The notes beneath the pieces are model-generated. The model saw nothing but the letters and a program-made list of their open reading frames with translations, made no database searches and was not told where the DNA came from. A DNA stretch of 64,000 nucleotides from an uncultured Eubacteriales bacterium (GTDB lineage: Bacteria > Bacillota > Clostridia > Oscillospirales > Oscillospiraceae). Made by a program: the position numbers and the translations under genes. Location: positions 3,070 through 67,069 of the forward strand of contig OMVL01000007.1 in the NCBI GenBank assembly GCA_900314485.1, in the 5' to 3' direction. This document shows, piece after piece, positions 14,983-19,680 of the stretch (position 1 is the stretch's first letter; every line of letters begins with the position of its first letter).

Positions 14983-15969
14983 TCACGCCAGCGCCGCCGT
15001 AATAATCGCCATGGAATAGACTTCCATCCCGTTGCAGCCCCGGGACAGGTCGTTAACGGGGGCGTTGAGGCCCAGCAGAATGGGGCCGTAGGCGTCAAAC
15101 TTGCCCAGACGCTGGGCGATCTTGTAGCCGATGTTGCCGGAATTGATGTCGGGGAAGATAAACACGTTGGCATGACCGGCCACGGCGGAGCTGGGGCACT
15201 TGGTCTGGGCCACACGGGGGGAGACGGCTGCGTCAAACTGCAGCTCGCCGTCGATGGCCAGGTCCGGGCGCATGCCTCCGGCCAGATGGGCGGCCTCCCG
15301 CATCTTGTCCACGTCCTCCCCAAAGCCGGAGCCGTGGGTGGAATAGCTGAGGAAAGCAATTTTCGGATCAATGCCGAAGATCTTGCCGCACTCGGCGCAG
15401 TGGATGCCGGTCTCTGCGATCTCCTGCACCGAGGGCTTGATGTTGATGGCGCAGTCGCCGAAGGCCAGTACCTCGTTTTCACCCGAGGCAGAGGGGCGGA
15501 CCAGAATGAAGCAGGAGGAGACACTGGTATAGCCCGGCTTGGTCTTGATGATCTGGAGGGCGGGCCGGACGGTGTCGGCGGTGGAGTATGTAGCGCCGCC
15601 CAGCAGCGCATCGGCAACGCCCATCTTCACCAGCATGGTGCCGAAGTAGTTGGGCTGCTTCAGGAGGGGGAGGGCCTTTTCCTTGGTCATGCCCTTGCTT
15701 TTCCGCAGCTCGCAGAAGAACTCCACCATCTCGTCAAAGCGCTCATAGTTGTCCGGGTCGATGATTTGGGCGCCCCGGACGTTGTAGCCCGCCTCCTCTG
15801 CGGCGGCCCAGACCACATCGGGCTTGCCGATGAGGACGGGGGTCAAAAAGGTGCTGGCCAGCAGCCGGGAGGCCGCCTCCAGAATACGGGGGTCTGCGCC
15901 CTCGGTAAAAACGATGGTCTTGGGGTTTTTCTTCAGCTGCTCGATCATGGAGCCAAAACCGAATGCCAT
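14983..15969 (-). CDS. pta: Phosphate acetyltransferase
   Basis: VFTEGADPRIL, TADTVRPALQII, IDGELQFDAA, FPDINSGNIGYKIAQR, NDLSRGC. Confidence 0.95.
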   Translation of the reverse strand: MAFGFGSMIEQLKKNPKTIVFTEGADPRILEAASRLLASTFLTPVLIGKPDVVWAAAEEAGYNVRGAQIIDPDNYERFDEMVEFFCELRKSKGMTKEKALPLLKQPNYFGTMLVKMGVADALLGGATYSTADTVRPALQIIKTKPGYTSVSSCFILVRPSASGENEVLAFGDCAINIKPSVQEIAETGIHCAECGKIFGIDPKIAFLSYSTHGSGFGEDVDKMREAAHLAGGMRPDLAIDGELQFDAAVSPRVAQTKCPSSAVAGHANVFIFPDINSGNIGYKIAQRLGKFDAYGPILLGLNAPVNDLSRGCNGMEVYSMAIITAALA

Positions 15970-16092
15970 AGTATGTCCTCCTCCATATTCCACGGCCGTC
16001 TCTCTGGGACAGCCGCATTTTTCTGTTTAACAATTTAGCACTTTTCCTCTACCATTGCAAGGGTTCTGTTGGGCATTTTGTGAAATTTGCTT

Positions 16093-16110
16093 TTGTTAAC
16101 TTTTTGACAA
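16093..16110. promoter_or_regulatory. Candidate Rex operator upstream of pta
   Basis: TTGTTAA-CTTT-TTGACAA, one mismatch to the clostridial Rex consensus TTGTTAANNNNTTAACAA. Confidence 0.5.
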
Positions 16111-16196
16111 AGTTTTGACCCTTCCGCCGCTTTACTTTTTTGGGACAAACAGGTATCATAATATGGAAAATCAATTTCCTGTGAGGAGATTCTCAT

Positions 16197-16295
16197 ATGA
16201 ACCAAGATCACATTCGCAACTTTTCCATCATCGCCCACATTGACCACGGCAAGTCGCATTCCCAAACGGCGGACCGTTTGGGAGCCCTTTCTTGA
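16197..16295 (+). pseudogene. Duplicated lepA 5' end forming a 32-aa ORF ([32 protein letters not shown])
   Basis: 16210-16255 matches 16427-16472 at 44 of 46 nt; has its own GAGGAG RBS. Confidence 0.85.
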
Positions 16296-16413
16296 TTTGA
16301 CATCCTCGGCGGAAATGAATTCCGCCTGCGGCAAGGTTTTGCTTCGCAAAACGCTTGTGACGCCGCACCTGCGGCGAAGCGTAGACTTGCCATAAAAAGA
16401 CTGGAGAATGATT

Positions 16414-18219
16414 ATGGATCAATCGAACATTCGCAACTTTTCTATCATCGCCCATATTGACCACGGCAAGTCTACGCTGTCCGACCGACTGATCGAGCTC
16501 TGCGGCGCTGTGGCGGAGCGGGACATGGAGAGCCAGCTTCTGGACAACATGGACTTAGAGCGGGAGCGGGGCATCACCATCAAGGCGAGAGCCGTCACGC
16601 TGCACTACAAGGCGGACGACGGGGAGGAGTATCAGCTTAACCTGATCGACACCCCGGGTCACGTGGACTTTAACTACGAGGTCAGCCGGTCTCTCGCCGC
16701 CTGCGAGGGGGCGGTTCTGGTGGTGGACGCCAGTCAGGGCGTGGAGGCCCAGACGCTGGCCAATACCTACCTGGCCCTGGACCACGATTTGGAAATTCGC
16801 CCGGTGGTGAACAAGATCGACCTCCCTGCCGCCGACCCGAAGCGGGTGAAGGAGGAGATTGAGAACATCATCGGCCTTCCCGCCGAGGACGCCCCGGAAA
16901 TTTCCGCCAAGGCGGGCATCAATATCCCCGCTGTGCTGGAGGATGTGGTGACGAACGTCCCCGCCCCCTCCGGAGATCCGGACGCTCCTCTGAAAGCGCT
17001 GATCTTCGACAGCCAGTACGACGCCTATCGGGGGGTCATCGTGCTGGTCCGGGTCATTGACGGAAAAATTGAGGTGGGCACCGAGGTCAAAATGATGGCC
17101 TCCGGCGCTTCCTACAAGGTGGTGGAGTGCGGTCATATGCTGCCCATCGGGCTGGACCCCTGCGGGACGCTCTCCGCCGGCGAGGTGGGCTACTTTACCG
17201 CCAGCATCAAAAACGTCCGGGATACCAACGTGGGCGACACGGTGACAGAGGCACAGAATCCCACCGCAGAACCGCTCCCCGGCTACCGTCCCGCCCAGCC
17301 CATGGTCTACTGCGGCATTTACACCGAGGACGGCTCCAAATACCCCGACCTGCGGGACGCCTTGGAGAAGCTGCAGCTCAACGACGCATCCCTTGTCTTT
17401 GAGCCGGAGTCCTCGGCGGCATTGGGCTTCGGCTTCCGCTGCGGATTTTTGGGCCTGCTGCACATGGAGATCATTCAGGAGCGGTTGGAGCGGGAGTTTG
17501 ATCTCGATCTGGTCACGACGCTCCCCAACGTCATCTATGAGATTGAGAAGACGGACGGCACTGTCCTGCGGGTGGACAACCCCCACGACTACCCGGACCC
17601 CGGCTCCATCCGGGAGGCCAGGGAGCCCTATGTCAACGTCTCCATCATCACCCCCAACACCTATGTGGGCGACATTATGCCCATCTGTCAGGAGCGCCGG
17701 GGCGAGTATCAGGACATGCAGTATCTGGACGCCAGTCTGGTGGAGCTTCACTATCAGCTGCCCCTGAACGAGACCATCTTTGACTTTTTCGACACCCTGA
17801 AAGCCAACACCAAGGGCTACGCCTCGTTGGACTATGAGCTCTCGGACTACCGCCCCAGCAATCTGGTGAAGGTAGACCTGCTGCTAAACGGCGACAAGGT
17901 GGACGCCCTCAGCTTTATCGTCCACAAGGACAAGGCCTACGCCCGGGCACGCCGCATCTGCGAGAAGCTGAAGGAGAACATTCCCCGTCAGCAGTTCGAG
18001 GTGCCCATTCAGGCGGCCATCGGCGGCAAGATCATCGCAAGAGAGACGGTGAAGGCGCTGCGGAAGGACGTCCTTGCCAAGTGCTACGGCGGCGACATCA
18101 CCCGGAAGAAGAAGCTGCTGGAAAAGCAGAAGCGGGGCAAGAAGAAGATGCGCTCGCTGGGTACGGTGCAGCTGCCGACGGAGGCGTTTATGGCTGTGCT
18201 GAAACTGGACAGTCAATAA
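16414..18219 (+). CDS. lepA: Elongation factor 4
   Basis: [52 protein letters not shown]. Confidence 0.98.
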
Positions 18220-18228
18220 GGAGGGCCT

Positions 18229-19506
18229 ATGCCGGAAGATGATCGCCGTCCGAGACGGCGCAGACGCAAAAAATGGAGCGCCAAACGCTGGCGCTTTGAG
18301 CTGACCCGGGCGGGTATCCTGCTGGGGATGATCCTGCTCATCGTCCTGCTGGTGAAGGGCTGTCAGGCGGTGTTGAACCGGCCGGTGAAGGAAGATCCAC
18401 CTGCCGATACCGTGGAGACGCTGCCCCGGGAACAGACGCAGGAGCAGGTGACTGACGCCCCTCCGGAGCCGGAGGAAAAGACCATCTCCCTCATTATGGT
18501 GGGAGACATCCTGCTCCACACCCCCTTGCAGGACAGCGGCCTGCAGCCGGACGGCAGCTACAATTACGATCACTTTTTCACCCACACGAAAGACCTGATC
18601 TCTCAGGCTGACCTTGCGCTGGTCAATCAGGAGGTCATTCTGGGCGGCACCGAGCTGGGGCTCTCCGGCTATCCCGCCTTTAACGGGGCCTACGAGGTGG
18701 GAGATGCGTTGGTAAAGGCCGGCTTCGACGTGATTTTACACGCCACCAACCACGCCGTGGACAAGGGAGAGCGGGGCATTTTGAACTGCCTGCACTTCTG
18801 GCAGACCAGTTACCCGGACATTGCCGTCCTGGGCATCCACGACAGTCAGGAGAGCCAGGACGAGATTTATATTTATGAGCAGGAGGGTGTAAAAATTGCC
18901 ATCCTGAACTACACCTACGGCACCAACGGCATTGCCGTCCCCCAAAGCTATGAGGTGGATCTGCTGGAGGAGGACCGGGTCATCTCTGATCTGGACTGGG
19001 CGGAGGAGCTGGCGGACTTTACCATTGTCGTCCCCCACTGGGGCACAGAGTACACCCATGAGGTCTCCGCCTCACAGGAGCGGTGGACCCAGATATTTCT
19101 GGCCCACGGGGCGGATCTGGTCATCGGCGCACACCCCCACGTCATCCAGCCTGTGGAGTGGGTGGAGGACGATGCGGGGCATAAAATGCTGGTCTATTAC
19201 TCCCTCGGCAACTTCATCAACTTTACCAGCGGCTCCGGCGACGGCGTCCGCCAGCGGGCGGTGGGAGCCATGGCGACAGTTACCCTTTCCGTGGAGAACG
19301 GGGAGGTCACTATATCCGATTACGGCGTCATTCCCCTGGTTGCCCACATGGTGGAGGGGACGGGGAATCCCACCGTCTACCCCCTCAGCGAATATACGGA
19401 GGAACTGCTGGCCGAGAACGCCATGACCCAAAAGGACCCGGGCTTTACCCTGGAATACTGCAAACAGCTCTGCCGGGACGTGTTTGGGGAGCTGTATCAG
19501 GAATAA
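18229..19506 (+). CDS. CapA/PGA_cap family metallophosphatase-fold membrane protein
   Basis: MVGDILLH, LVNQE, ATNHAVD, PHWGTEY, IGAHPHVIQP, YSLGNF. Confidence 0.9.
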   Translation: MPEDDRRPRRRRRKKWSAKRWRFELTRAGILLGMILLIVLLVKGCQAVLNRPVKEDPPADTVETLPREQTQEQVTDAPPEPEEKTISLIMVGDILLHTPLQDSGLQPDGSYNYDHFFTHTKDLISQADLALVNQEVILGGTELGLSGYPAFNGAYEVGDALVKAGFDVILHATNHAVDKGERGILNCLHFWQTSYPDIAVLGIHDSQESQDEIYIYEQEGVKIAILNYTYGTNGIAVPQSYEVDLLEEDRVISDLDWAEELADFTIVVPHWGTEYTHEVSASQERWTQIFLAHGADLVIGAHPHVIQPVEWVEDDAGHKMLVYYSLGNFINFTSGSGDGVRQRAVGAMATVTLSVENGEVTISDYGVIPLVAHMVEGTGNPTVYPLSEYTEELLAENAMTQKDPGFTLEYCKQLCRDVFGELYQE

Positions 19507-19680
19507 AAGACAGTCTTTCCTCTCTGTGAAAGGTCAAAAATCCCGCCTGAATGTACAGGCGGGATTTTTCATGTCCTACAATGCAAGGTCCGAACGAGAG
19601 GCCTGACCCACTGCAAGGGGTGGCCCGCTTGACTACCTAAACGCAAAATAAAAAGGCTCTCTATTGAGAGCCTTTTCAAG

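Follow-up and report, generated by a model that had tools for sequence, protein, structure and literature searches.

A dispersed, protein-less mobile repeat with a target-complementary segment at the 5' end of lepA in Oscillospiraceae

The lepA locus

The DNA analysed here, referred to as the window, is a stretch of 64,000 nucleotides from an uncultured Oscillospiraceae bacterium, and all positions are window positions. lepA starts twice. The first ATG, at 16197, is preceded by GAGGAG (16183-16188) and opens a 32-codon orphan ORF (16197-16295), which consists of the first 20 LepA codons followed by 12 residues encoded by an insert and extends through the perfect hairpin TCCCAAACGG-cgga-CCGTTTGGGA (16260-16283) to a stop located 3' of it. 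Further hairpins follow in the order GGCGGAA-atgaa-TTCCGCC, GTTTTGC-ttc-GCAAAAC and CGCCGC-acct-GCGGCG, and 3' of these a second ribosome binding site (GGAGA, 16403-16407) precedes full-length lepA (16414-18219). The two starts belong to a 60-nt direct repeat (16196-16255 and 16413-16472, 87% identity) with a 46-nt core (16210-16255 and 16427-16472). The two mismatches of the core, TCC/TCT at 16226 and CAC/CAT at 16238, are both synonymous and in the third codon position. A preliminary description made from the sequence had listed both starts with their ribosome binding sites, the hairpin read through by the short ORF, the further hairpins and the 46-nt repeat, and all were confirmed.

Additionally, the insert carries a 14-nt segment (16378-16391, AGCGTAGACTTGCC) which is the perfect complement of lepA positions 16465-16478, straddling the end of the repeat. 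This is the only such pair in the 64 kb, and two matches were obtained in 0 of 100 shuffles. The features of the locus are as follows, where Y and Y' are the two repeat copies, E is the scaffold and g is the complementary segment.

16131-16159, plus strand: native promoter-like site of lepA, TTTACT-17-TATCAT, upstream of the orphan start (consensus scan)
16183-16189, plus strand: native lepA ribosome binding site GAGGAGA, read in the sequence; it precedes the sole lepA start of alleles lacking E
16196-16255, plus strand: repeat copy 1 (Y), native lepA 5' end, now severed from the gene
16197-16295, plus strand: orphan ORF, native lepA codons 1-20 (MNQDH...HGKS) and 12 element codons
16256-16472, minus strand: inserted unit of 217 nt, missing in alleles of the same species
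16256-16382, minus strand: family scaffold (E), covariance model score 108.7 bits, E = 1.4e-30
16259-16284, minus strand: hairpin A, CCC..GGG type, directly beside repeat copy 1, with a stem sequence that differs in every family copy
16303-16331, minus strand: hairpin B, inner stem GGCGGAA/TTCCGCC with a 5-nt loop, and an outer stem
16332-16357, minus strand: hairpin C, invariant family core, CAAGGTTTTGC-loop-GCAAAACGCTTG on the plus strand (pattern scan and alignment)
16361-16376, minus strand: hairpin D, CGCCGC-acct-GCGGCG, stem covarying between copies
16378-16391, no strand assigned: anti-target segment g, perfect complement of 16465-16478
16392-16413, plus strand: spacer with the element-borne ribosome binding site, differing from the native leader
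16413-16472, plus strand: repeat copy 2 (Y'), replacement lepA start ATG GAT CAA TCG AAC..., joined to the gene
16465-16478, plus strand: intact target GGCAAGTC|TACGCT, spanning the insertion point and pairing with g (14-bp stem in the predicted mRNA fold)
16414-18219, plus strand: lepA (EF4) as expressed now, 601 aa, starting MDQSN

The 217-nt unit, whose register is ambiguous within the repeat, thus comprises the hairpin scaffold, the anti-target segment, the spacer with the new ribosome binding site and start, and repeat copy 2. The scaffold has a predicted folding energy of -56.3 kcal/mol (z = -4.3). Within the window no second family copy was found by blastn or nhmmer; the covariance model gave one weak match in the rest of the window, at 19537-19656.

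Assembly and empty alleles

An assembly duplication, which the preliminary description had raised against its own reading, was rejected, since the duplication is spanned by independent contigs and runs. Contigs of four independent bovine-gut runs cover it with at most one difference each: X1 (15900-16766) and X10 (15900-16674) with none, X6 (15900-16800) with one, and X2 in two overlapping contigs, again with none. The stretch was found in at least 20 runs from 11 studies, and LepA with the second start (MDQSN) is encoded on more than 250 contigs. The contigs lacking E are also real, because the repeat is shorter than the k used by the assemblers.

Two alleles of the same species, L130 and L131, show 99.1-99.6% identity along roughly 4.4 kb and lack exactly the 217 nt, having the order promoter, ribosome binding site, ATGAACCAAGATCAC... 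GGCAAGTC|TACGCT. Their region upstream of the start is identical to that upstream of the orphan start. A third contig with the same protein, L129, has a run of N in the lepA 5' region and was excluded from the evidence. Remoter relatives (L124-L128 and L132) likewise have no insert at lepA, and the covariance model found no match in L124-L128 or L130-L132. The 5' sequence of the orphan ORF is the genuine lepA start in L124-L127, L130 and L131, and a same-species protein that is 99% identical and starts with MNQDH (P0018) is found on three contigs. Since the alleles of the same species lacking E start with MNQDH, the native start is that of copy 1, and the working MDQSN start came with the insert. 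The latter is similar to the MTDQSK-type lepA of other lineages. The working start and its ribosome binding site are therefore element-borne and of foreign origin, and the earlier suggestion that an element integrated into the lepA 5' end while supplying a replacement start holds.

Alleles lacking E are common among relatives, and empty and occupied alleles coexist in one species, so that presence of the unit is polymorphic within that species. At the two positions where the repeat copies differ, the window has C,C in Y and T,T in Y', whereas L130 has T,T and L131 has C,T. The empty alleles are chimeras of both repeat copies; therefore the unit is gained and lost through recombination inside the duplicated gene end. 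Such chimeras are the expected outcome of either gain or loss by this route, and general homologous recombination alone can account for them.

A repeat family in Oscillospiraceae

The sequence at 16256-16472 belongs to a dispersed family of mobile, protein-less repeats in Oscillospiraceae, of which it is a single copy. When the core was searched for as an exact pattern, at least 120 loci were found, nearly all in Oscillospiraceae and with several copies per genome; the repeat is about 125-190 nt long. The copies that were aligned had been retrieved with the pattern of the hairpin C core, which is invariant in the resulting alignment of 66 sequences. Many copies sit at contig ends, and there is a tRNA-linked subfamily (L003, L010 and L011). 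In phage and plasmid collections, copies were found only on unannotated gut contigs and on two Oscillospiraceae chromids, at sites without annotation; 7 of 10 pattern matches on viral contigs are real copies, and a partner gene was near none of them. A full-text literature search found no description of the family.

Direct repeats of host sequence, 25-130 nt long, flank 102 of 135 copies. In the 89 copies analysed further, the inner repeat end lies 60-90 nt (mostly 72-79) before the core. Most of these (69) sit at the 3' end of a gene that runs on the other strand, and about ten at the 5' end of a gene on the same strand. The intact gene lies on the hairpin-D side in all classifiable copies (80/89). 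The gene ends used are many and include those of lepA, infB, truB, uvrB, a hisS-like gene and an ABC ATPase gene, and the host duplication stops at the stop codon in far more cases than randomly placed second nicks would produce. The junction at hairpin A is always precise, and the other junction has 0-26 extra bases. A weak preference for T-C-C at +1 to +3 of the insertion site is partly inflated by orthologous sites, and the first bases of the element resemble those of the target over 2-3 nt. Tandem arrays of the form Y-E-Y-E-Y occur. Hairpins A and D were considered as copies of the target and rejected, as they match their own and foreign flanks alike, except in arrays.

Differences between the repeat copies fall mostly in the third codon position (143, against 37 in the first and 23 in the second). 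Substitutions are symmetric and rich in transitions (A>G 42, G>A 40, C>T 40, T>C 25). These differences are as expected if one copy derives from a diverged orthologue. The mismatch gradient toward the junction is slight, with 2.9% near the junction and 4-6% further off.

The description of the lepA insert as non-autonomous fits the family: the insert is free of ORFs, and the 8-kb flanks of 120 copies contain no recurrent recombinase. Its classification as the scar of an integrase attachment site does not, given the 89 duplication-flanked copies at many gene ends, each with its own duplication and its own segment. Nor was the larger, integrase-bearing version seen; a large insert between the repeats was found in 0 of 135 copies.

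Scaffold structure and strand

The scaffold has four to five conserved hairpins. In the 66-sequence alignment 91.8% of cells are paired, compared with 79.2% in shuffles, and 264 cells are changed on both sides, compared with 101; the observed pairing values were reached by 0 of 500 shuffles, and slid controls were 32-52% paired. In hairpin B, compensatory changes at 16311/16323 and 16304/16331 are seen in a second family copy from the same metagenomes. Covariation also indicates which strand is structured. In the orientation first used, the mismatches were 45 A·C against 2 G·T in hairpin A and 11 against 3 in hairpin B, and one scaffold pair is G·U in 36 sequences, A·U in 20 and G·C in 9. Because of the G·U pairs, the structured strand is the one antisense to lepA in the window.

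No minus-strand promoter was predicted over 16256-16600, and in 5'-end copies like that of lepA an RNA copy of the structured strand could arise only from a dedicated promoter. Metatranscriptome contigs, which are unstranded and may include DNA, run through E into lepA. The covariance models of Rfam 15 gave no relevant match at E <= 10 over 15800-16700, the only matches being sub-threshold on the lepA coding sequence (AsrC, 35 bits against a gathering score of 111) or chance snoRNA matches.

The anti-target segment

In about half of the copies a segment of 10-17 nt adjoins the scaffold and complements the uninterrupted target across the insertion point; the other half has no clear segment of this kind. 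The longest exact complement to the junction has a mean length of 9.3 nt, compared with 5.25 nt at a control site, and a match at 11 or more of 14 positions is seen for 42 of 88 copies, compared with 3 of 437 cases in the null set. This complementarity belongs to each copy and its own target. The lepA target differs between species (GGCAAGTC|TACGCT in the window, GGTAAATCC|ACGCTG in L026, GGCAAGTCC|ACGC in L112), as does that of infB (GCCC|TCCTTGA, GCCT|TCCTTG and GCCC|TCTTTG), and the segment tracks each of them. No clear trend of decay was seen as the flanking repeats diverge from 0 to 9%, and copies without an orphan repeat (L112, L004) have kept a segment matching the local target. The register relative to the junction varies, the left end lying between -14 and -2 and the right end between +1 and +9. 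Such a register is looser than a fixed guide would suggest, and a by-product templated during insertion could account for it.

Comparison with known systems

The locus resembles gene-end integrative elements (prophages, ICEs and CIMEs) in occupying the end of a housekeeping gene, in direct repeats of the target that flank the element while the gene is restored by an element-borne copy, and in strain polymorphism. Unlike these, the repeat has no integrase and is about 200 nt long, its repeat length varies with the target, and each copy carries a segment complementary to its own target. Instead of one conserved attachment site for the family, the 89 copies occupy many gene ends. The group of REP/BIME, BOX, RUP, Correia and RPE repeats is likewise short, structured, multi-copy, unannotated and near gene ends; they are built on terminal inverted repeats or single palindromes, their duplications measure 0-9 bp, and none has a target-specific segment or a replacement gene end. 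A MITE of a DDE transposon was rejected, as the duplications are 25-130 nt and variable rather than short and fixed. The 66-sequence alignment showed no terminal inverted repeats, the ends being hairpin A on one side and hairpin D/E with the target-specific segment on the other.

Group I and II introns are also structured, pair through an internal sequence (IGS or EBS-IBS) with both sides of the insertion point, home into empty alleles and import flanks as in co-conversion. The segment found here spans about -8 to +6 and so also pairs with both sides, which is a likeness of action and not of membership. The family differs in that the gene is saved by duplication of its end, with no hint of splicing, and in that the repeat is often antisense; its scaffold is 125 nt, and no Rfam match to an intron catalytic core (Intron_gpI or group II) was found.

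Hairpin-rich, strand-specific, ORF-less and dispersed sequences are also known from IS200/IS605 elements, PATEs and the omega or re-RNAs of TnpB/IscB, and in that family a structured RNA beside a target-derived guide drives homing by cutting empty sites. IS200/IS605-type elements differ by making no target duplication, and their guide is the adjacent flank, not an inverted copy. A derivative of these was rejected: the duplications here are long, and there is only the weak T-C-C preference, not a fixed motif of 4-5 nt. No TnpA, TnpB or IscB gene was found in the 8-kb flanks, and the window copy had no Rfam match to HEARO or omega-RNA. The bridge (seek) RNAs of IS110/IS1111 are alike as non-coding RNAs that pick a target by pairing around the crossover. 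They have two bipartite loops (target and donor), lie beside the recombinase gene and go without long duplications; this candidate was rejected, as here there are long duplications, no bipartite loops were seen, and the 8-kb flanks have no recurrent DEDD or serine recombinase. A diversity-generating retroelement (TR/VR) was rejected as well, with transitions that are symmetric and not confined to adenine, and no reverse transcriptase seen in the 8-kb flanks.

Non-LTR retrotransposons and SINEs share variable target duplications, one precise and one untidy junction, and a non-autonomous character. The family has no poly-A and no reverse transcriptase, and its inverted target copy and gene-end rule have no counterpart there. 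To our knowledge this class is not known in bacteria.

Proposed mechanism and alternatives

The reading we prefer is that the family is a protein-less mobile repeat, sitting inside gene ends, which spreads as a nucleic-acid-guided homing element; we give it a probability of roughly 0.6, the homing part being what we infer from the anatomy. A unit would consist of the scaffold, the adjacent target-complementary segment and a copy of the displaced gene end that keeps the gene whole. In lepA the unit sits after codon 20, and EF4 would be made from the element-borne ribosome binding site and start. The scaffold, as RNA or as a single DNA strand, would find an unoccupied or already occupied target through its anti-target segment, and the target would probably be cut by a putative trans-acting enzyme. 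The break would then be repaired from an occupied allele, the orphan copy and the gene body serving as its two homology arms, and scaffold, guide and replacement end would be copied into the target. Re-cutting of a regenerated target would yield tandem arrays.

No nuclease, recombinase or reverse transcriptase recurred within 8 kb of 120 copies, and clustering of all ORFs at these loci returned only the target genes; the guided-cleavage step is for this reason left without an enzyme. Furthermore, no mechanism that we considered accounts for the way in which a newly colonised target comes by a duplication as well as a segment that matches it, or for the frequency with which the duplication ends exactly at the stop codon. 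Simple target-primed reverse transcription, Campbell integration and staggered DDE cuts each explain a part only, and the same applies to fold-back priming and prime-editing-like priming with respect to the anatomy. To arrive at the observed orientation of all four parts (scaffold, spacer, inverted copy of the target and copy of the gene end), each of them needs an extra step. A bolder version, in which the family is a new class of programmable homing element whose RNA or ssDNA scaffold of about 125 nt, with a copy-specific guide, directs a trans-acting enzyme of the host or of the element to cut the intact target, is put forward tentatively and is itself rather doubtful. Such an element would be harmless by carrying the displaced gene end and not by splicing, which would add a third strategy to those of introns and inteins. 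On colonising a new gene it would have a means of generating a fresh guide and gene-end patch.

The repeat might instead be passive. Insertion would then be rare, the inverted target copy would be a by-product of it (templated snap-back or a strand switch at a staggered break), and spread and loss would be left to ordinary homologous recombination, with duplicated ends lying in conserved coding sequence and the segment without function. We regard this as unlikely, though it is the alternative with most in its favour: each empty allele is a simple chimera of Y and Y', the segment varies in register and length and cannot be made out clearly in about half of the copies, the 8-kb flanks yielded no partner enzyme, and the differences between repeat copies resemble orthologue divergence. 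It does not lead one to expect that complementarity stays while the flanking repeats diverge, that the segment follows species differences at lepA and infB and still fits the local target where the orphan repeat is gone, or that the scaffold is under strong strand-specific structural constraint, for which a passive scar has no need. A SINE-like retroelement, in which target-primed reverse transcription of the structured-strand RNA begins at a nick in the insertion point, would obtain its long duplication from a distant nick on the opposite strand, and the spacer and inverted copy from template jumps at the RNA 5' end. It would place the precise junction at hairpin A, the would-be RNA 3' end, and the untidy one opposite, and it agrees with the variable duplication length, with the 2-3 nt similarity of first bases and with the G·U evidence, which would identify the template strand. 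It is nevertheless improbable, as no reverse transcriptase lies in the flanks, the plain version needs an extra jump across the nick to place the inverted target copy, the stop-codon ends exceed what random second nicks predict, and the pattern of L130 and L131 requires later recombination anyway.

Very little weight is left for the proposal that the insert is the attachment-site scar, or a cis-mobilisable mini-element, of a tyrosine-integrase island targeting lepA, perhaps kept as a uORF or attenuator tuning EF4. Gene-end direct repeats with a replacement start are a classic integrase signature, a tRNA-linked subfamily exists, and the uORF passes through a hairpin with a T-rich stretch behind it. 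One integrase could not place a scaffold at many gene ends with copy-specific complementarity, though, and neither an integrase nor a larger element was found between any repeat pair. The domesticated leader of the preliminary description also fails: the orphan ORF is missing or decayed in the lepA copies L112 and L002 and differs in length and stop position in L001, CCC separates the hairpin stem from the T-tract, the constrained strand is antisense to lepA, and alleles with and without E share one species.

Implications

If the inferred mechanism is true, the family constitutes a compact mobile module that encodes no protein, finds its target through base pairing and shields the host gene with a spare gene end, and we know of no description of this design among bacterial repeats. 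Its partner enzyme would then be a candidate programmable DNA-targeting activity. On the conservative reading, it is a common unannotated repeat of major gut and rumen Oscillospiraceae which generates orphan ORFs and breaks assemblies, and gene callers and pangenome tools will mis-handle such loci. It rewrites the first or last 10-40 codons, and with them the ribosome binding site or the 3' UTR, of housekeeping genes, including lepA, infB, truB and uvrB, and carries short foreign gene ends between lineages.

The lepA locus

The 5' end of lepA is duplicated around an insert with the following features, in window coordinates.

16196-16255 (+), left (orphan) repeat copy, Y
16197-16295 (+), orphan ORF, 32 codons, opened by its own GAGGAG and ATG
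16256-16472 (-), inserted unit, 217 nt
16259-16284 (-), hairpin A; the orphan ORF reads across a perfect 10-bp hairpin at 16260-16283
16303-16331, 16332-16357 and 16361-16376 (-), hairpins B, C (the core) and D
16378-16391, anti-target segment
16413-16472 (+), right (gene-joined) repeat copy, Y'
16414-18219 (+), full lepA, preceded by a second GGAGA

The 60-nt copies are 87% identical, with a 46-nt core carrying two mismatches. Re-reading the sequence confirmed the duplication, orphan ORF, hairpins and second RBS of the preliminary description, which had overlooked the segment at 16378-16391, a perfect 14-nt complement of lepA 16465-16478 that straddles the repeat end. This pair is unique in the 64 kb, and two matches occurred in 0 of 100 shuffles. 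An assembly duplication, the doubt raised earlier, is ruled out by contigs from four independent bovine-gut runs, which span the repeat with at most one difference; the stretch is present in at least 20 runs from 11 studies.

Transcripts of lepA from the native promoter must traverse the orphan ORF and the scaffold (the hairpins) before the new RBS. Metatranscriptome contigs cover 16215 to 16857 continuously; they are unstranded and possibly include DNA. The predicted fold in mRNA sense has a 14-bp stem (16378-16391 with 16465-16478) enclosing the new RBS and start, and the insert may possibly affect output of EF4, the LepA product. A uORF or attenuator tuning EF4, as formerly suggested, gains no support as a conserved role at lepA, because the orphan ORF is unconserved among lepA copies and alleles with and without the insert coexist.

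An Rfam match to AsrC (antisense RNA of rseC mRNA) at 16405-16501 (-) is taken as spurious, scoring 35 bits against a gathering score of 111 and falling within lepA's conserved 5' coding region.

Alleles without the unit

The LepA proteins of the species (P0001-P0017, more than 250 contigs) start MDQSN, except P0013, called from a later start. P0018, a 99% identical LepA, starts MNQDH. Two contigs encoding it, L130 and L131, share 99.1-99.6% identity with the window (over about 4.4 kb in the case of L130) and read pta, the same promoter and RBS, then ATGAACCAAGATCAC... GGCAAGTC/TACGCT (slash, repeat end), the 217 nt being absent. A third P0018 contig, L129, was excluded as evidence for a run of N in the lepA 5' region. 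The covariance model described below had no match in L124-L128 or L130-L132, and relatives at 98%, 94%, 93%, 91% and 85% LepA identity are likewise empty.

Judged from the same-species alleles that lack the 217 nt and start MNQDH, copy 1 is the native lepA start, and the RBS and start in use came with the element. The proposal of an element supplying a replacement start was thereby upheld. Elsewhere, L001 shows the same architecture at lepA as the window, and L112 carries the element. The element-borne first codons, ATG GAT CAA TCG AAC, resemble MTDQSK-type lepA, e.g. that of L112.

Table. Nucleotides at two repeat positions
Sequence; 16226; 16238
Window Y; C; C
Window Y'; T; T
L130 (empty); T; T
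L131 (empty); C; T

Both empty patterns are those expected from Y x Y' crossovers at different points (excision), or from circle integration via a crossover inside Y. Scaffold, anti-target segment, spacer and replacement gene end come and go together as one unit, through recombination inside the duplicated gene end.

In runs X26 and X28, RNA contigs match the window (at least 97% identity) from 16294 onwards into lepA. Upstream of 16294 they differ, a hairpin ..CTCTGACC-TTCG-GGTCAGAG standing where the window has hairpin A and the orphan copy, apparently a strain variant with that unit end replaced. Two dense SNP clusters among same-species lepA alleles (17241-17274 and 17349-17391, 13 and 8 differences, the rest of the gene being 99% identical) mark tracts of mosaic recombination that have nothing to do with the insert. 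Between pta and lepA, L127 (GCA_000421005.1, 300-1200) has a spacer of about 900 nt, against about 200 nt in empty alleles, and an HTH-domain gene, not pta, precedes lepA in other lineages (L128, L001 and L002 examined upstream).

A family of repeats

Three gut contigs sharing the hairpin set came from a distant BLAST against phage records: L001, L002 (upstream of lepA, duplication absent) and L003 (tandem, behind a tRNA). The family core is AGGTTTTGC-N3-7-GCAAAACGCTTG, and an exact-pattern scan of one genome per species returned at least 120 stretches. What had been described as one integrative element does belong to a mobile family; it lies at many gene ends and is not specific to lepA. Hosts among the matches listed are nearly all Oscillospiraceae (Flavonifractor, Pseudoflavonifractor, Lawsonibacter, Intestinimonas, Oscillibacter, Dysosmobacter, Vescimonas, Enterenecus, Flintibacter), with several copies per genome and many at contig ends. 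Rfam 15 had no match to the window copy, and no feature is annotated at the family sites of two annotated replicons.

A second copy, roughly 90% identical with other flanks and two compensatory changes in hairpin B, occurs in the same metagenomes. It is a 207-nt contig in runs X1, X2 and X10 (compared with window 16258-16376) at comparable depth, with flanks that match a different gene of rumen MAG 1815 (L060) at its 3' end, and it may sit in the same genome as the window copy. In Flavonifractor plautii ATCC 29863 (single-organism run), word depth over the invariant core at L039 3062-3097 is 5-7x that of the flanks, which suggests at least 5-7 copies with identical core.

In a tRNA-linked subfamily (L003, L006, L010, L011, L046, L048, L073, L098, L113, L119) the scaffold lies behind a tRNA gene or tRNA 3' fragment, whose terminator replaces hairpin A; hairpin D frequently terminates in a T-run, many copies stand in tandem, and gene-end duplication is mostly absent. 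Viral-classed contigs also carry copies (L133, L136, L138/L139, L141, L142 and two in L137, both with the same hairpin A, each between co-directional genes directly 5' of an RBS, without duplication). Among copies such as L013, L034 and L110 (about 280-560), some hold additional sequence inside the scaffold (in L110 ~70 nt between hairpins B and C) and others have unusually long segments separating scaffold from repeat; these may be nested insertions or subfamilies.

Unit order and gene-end duplication

Read in core-pattern orientation (+ in the window), the order is Y, A, T-rich linker, B, C, D, sometimes a short hairpin E, variable segment, Y', gene. Hairpin A has the form CCCC-stem-GGGG-N-CCCC with a stem that differs in every copy, and hairpin C is invariant. 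Direct repeats of host sequence (25-130 nt, 0-11 mismatches) flank 102 of 135 copies. The left repeat ends 60-90 nt, mostly 72-79, before the core, i.e. at hairpin A (n=89). In this set 69 copies lie at the 3' end of an opposite-strand gene and about 10 at the RBS and start of a same-strand gene (this window, L001, L034 at uvrB, L035/L074/L121 at hisS-like genes, L062/L123 at truB), and the hairpin-D side holds the intact gene in every classifiable copy (80/89). An annotated Vescimonas replicon has one copy just 3' of infB in the gene's sense and another just 5' of truB in antisense. Targets hit repeatedly in different species are infB, with 11 loci, an ABC ATPase with 7, truB/ribF with 6, a mutS region with 5 and lepA with at least 5.

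In 31 of the 69 copies at 3' ends, the duplication has its outer edge 0-2 nt from the stop codon; in L055 it stops there even though the repeats match exactly and the terminator of the gene itself comes later. Tandem arrays Y-E-Y-E-Y (here E is the scaffold) occur in L040, L055, L084, L088 and L093. Repeat differences across the family fall at third codon positions in 143 cases, against 37 and 23 at the others, with symmetric transitions. This bias fits one repeat copy having been imported from a diverged orthologue, and is a misfit with DGR-type mutagenesis or free decay of the orphan.

Scaffold structure and strand

Covariation was assessed on a 66-sequence alignment with a five-helix structure, 500 column shuffles and slid-partner controls. 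Paired cells reached 91.8%, against 79.2% in column shuffles and 32-52% with slid partners; both-sided changes numbered 264 cells against 101 expected, in 18 pairs, and the observed values were reached in 0 of 500 shuffles. RNAalifold recovers helices A, B and C unaided. Helix C contributes no covariation, since it does not vary within the alignment, whose members were collected by its sequence; it looks like a putative binding site.

In + orientation, mismatches are A·C rather than G·T (45 vs 2 in hairpin A, 11 vs 3 in hairpin B), and a single hairpin-A pair, read on the other strand, occurs as G·U in 36 sequences, as A·U in 20 and as G·C in 9. These patterns argue that the constrained strand is the reverse of the core pattern, minus in the window and antisense to lepA; that strand is the host-gene sense strand in 3'-end copies, roughly three-quarters of copies. 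The assignment holds equally for RNA or single-stranded DNA.

With a covariance model derived from this alignment, the window copy reaches 108.7 bits (minus strand), and no other convincing copy emerges within the 64 kb. A weak match at 19537-19656 (-), 17.7 bits with a rough E of about 8e-4, lies just 3' of a CapA-like ORF (18229-19506) and has CAAGCG..CCTTG and a terminator-like hairpin AAAAATCCCGCCTG..CAGGCGGGATTTT; L129 shows the same weak match. It may be a degenerate relative or chance.

The anti-target segment

In most copies hairpin D or E is directly followed by 10-17 nt that form a perfect complement of the intact target at the Y'/gene junction, typically covering about -8 to +6. The longest match averages 9.3 nt, against 5.25 at a control site 60 nt further in, and at least 11 of 14 positions match in 42/88 copies, against 3/437 with junctions swapped between copies. 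At lepA and infB the segment tracks the local target.

Table. Targets (slash, junction) and segments
Locus; target; segment
lepA, window; GGCAAGTC/TACGCT; AGCGTA-GACTTGCC
lepA, L001/L026; GGTAAATCC/ACGCTG; CAGCGT-GGATTTACC
lepA, L112; GGCAAGTCC/ACGC; GCGT-GGACTTGCC
infB, L051; GCCC/TCCTTGA; TCAAGGA-GGGC...
infB, L095; GCCT/TCCTTG; CAAGGA-AGGC...
infB, L094; GCCC/TCTTTG; CAAAGA-GGGC...

The segment is retained where the orphan repeat is gone (L112 at lepA, L004 at truB), and its complementarity does not drop over flanking-repeat divergence of 0 to 9%.

Known systems and proposed mechanism

Like integrative elements that restore the target gene end, this unit restores a gene end; introns and guide-RNA-assisted transposons home by base pairing, and the likeness to them is in how the unit would work. 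The family failed the defining tests of integrase elements, MITEs, IS200/IS605 derivatives, IS110 bridge RNAs, group I/II introns, DGRs and leader attenuators. We found no description of it in Rfam or the literature, which leaves its absence there unproven, and have filed it as a non-autonomous mobile repeat or homing element.

Our preferred reading, which we infer, is a homing element. The scaffold strand and the adjacent target-complementary segment would mark the intact target for a trans-acting enzyme, and the occupied allele would serve as repair template, its orphan copy and its gene body providing the homology arms, so that the unit is copied in. The target would be regenerated beside the insert, repeated rounds thereby giving arrays, and later loss of the orphan would fix the insert. 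None of the mechanisms that we derived gives a new target both a matching segment and a duplication, or explains why duplications so often end at the stop codon.

One rival is a passive repeat: the unit would move through general recombination only and the inverted target copy would be a by-product. The segment's register is variable, its left end lying anywhere from -14 to -2 and its right end from +1 to +9, and no clear segment is seen in about half of the copies; both points count against a strict guide. A SINE-like retroelement is a further rival, as is the integrase scar or uORF leader of the preliminary description. The 8-kb flanks show no recurrent transposase, integrase or reverse transcriptase, and targets are many different genes, so an att scar is very unlikely.

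We regard it as possible, at a probability of about 0.3, that the family is a new class of programmable homing element. The unit brings in sequence of other lineages and leaves the target gene intact.
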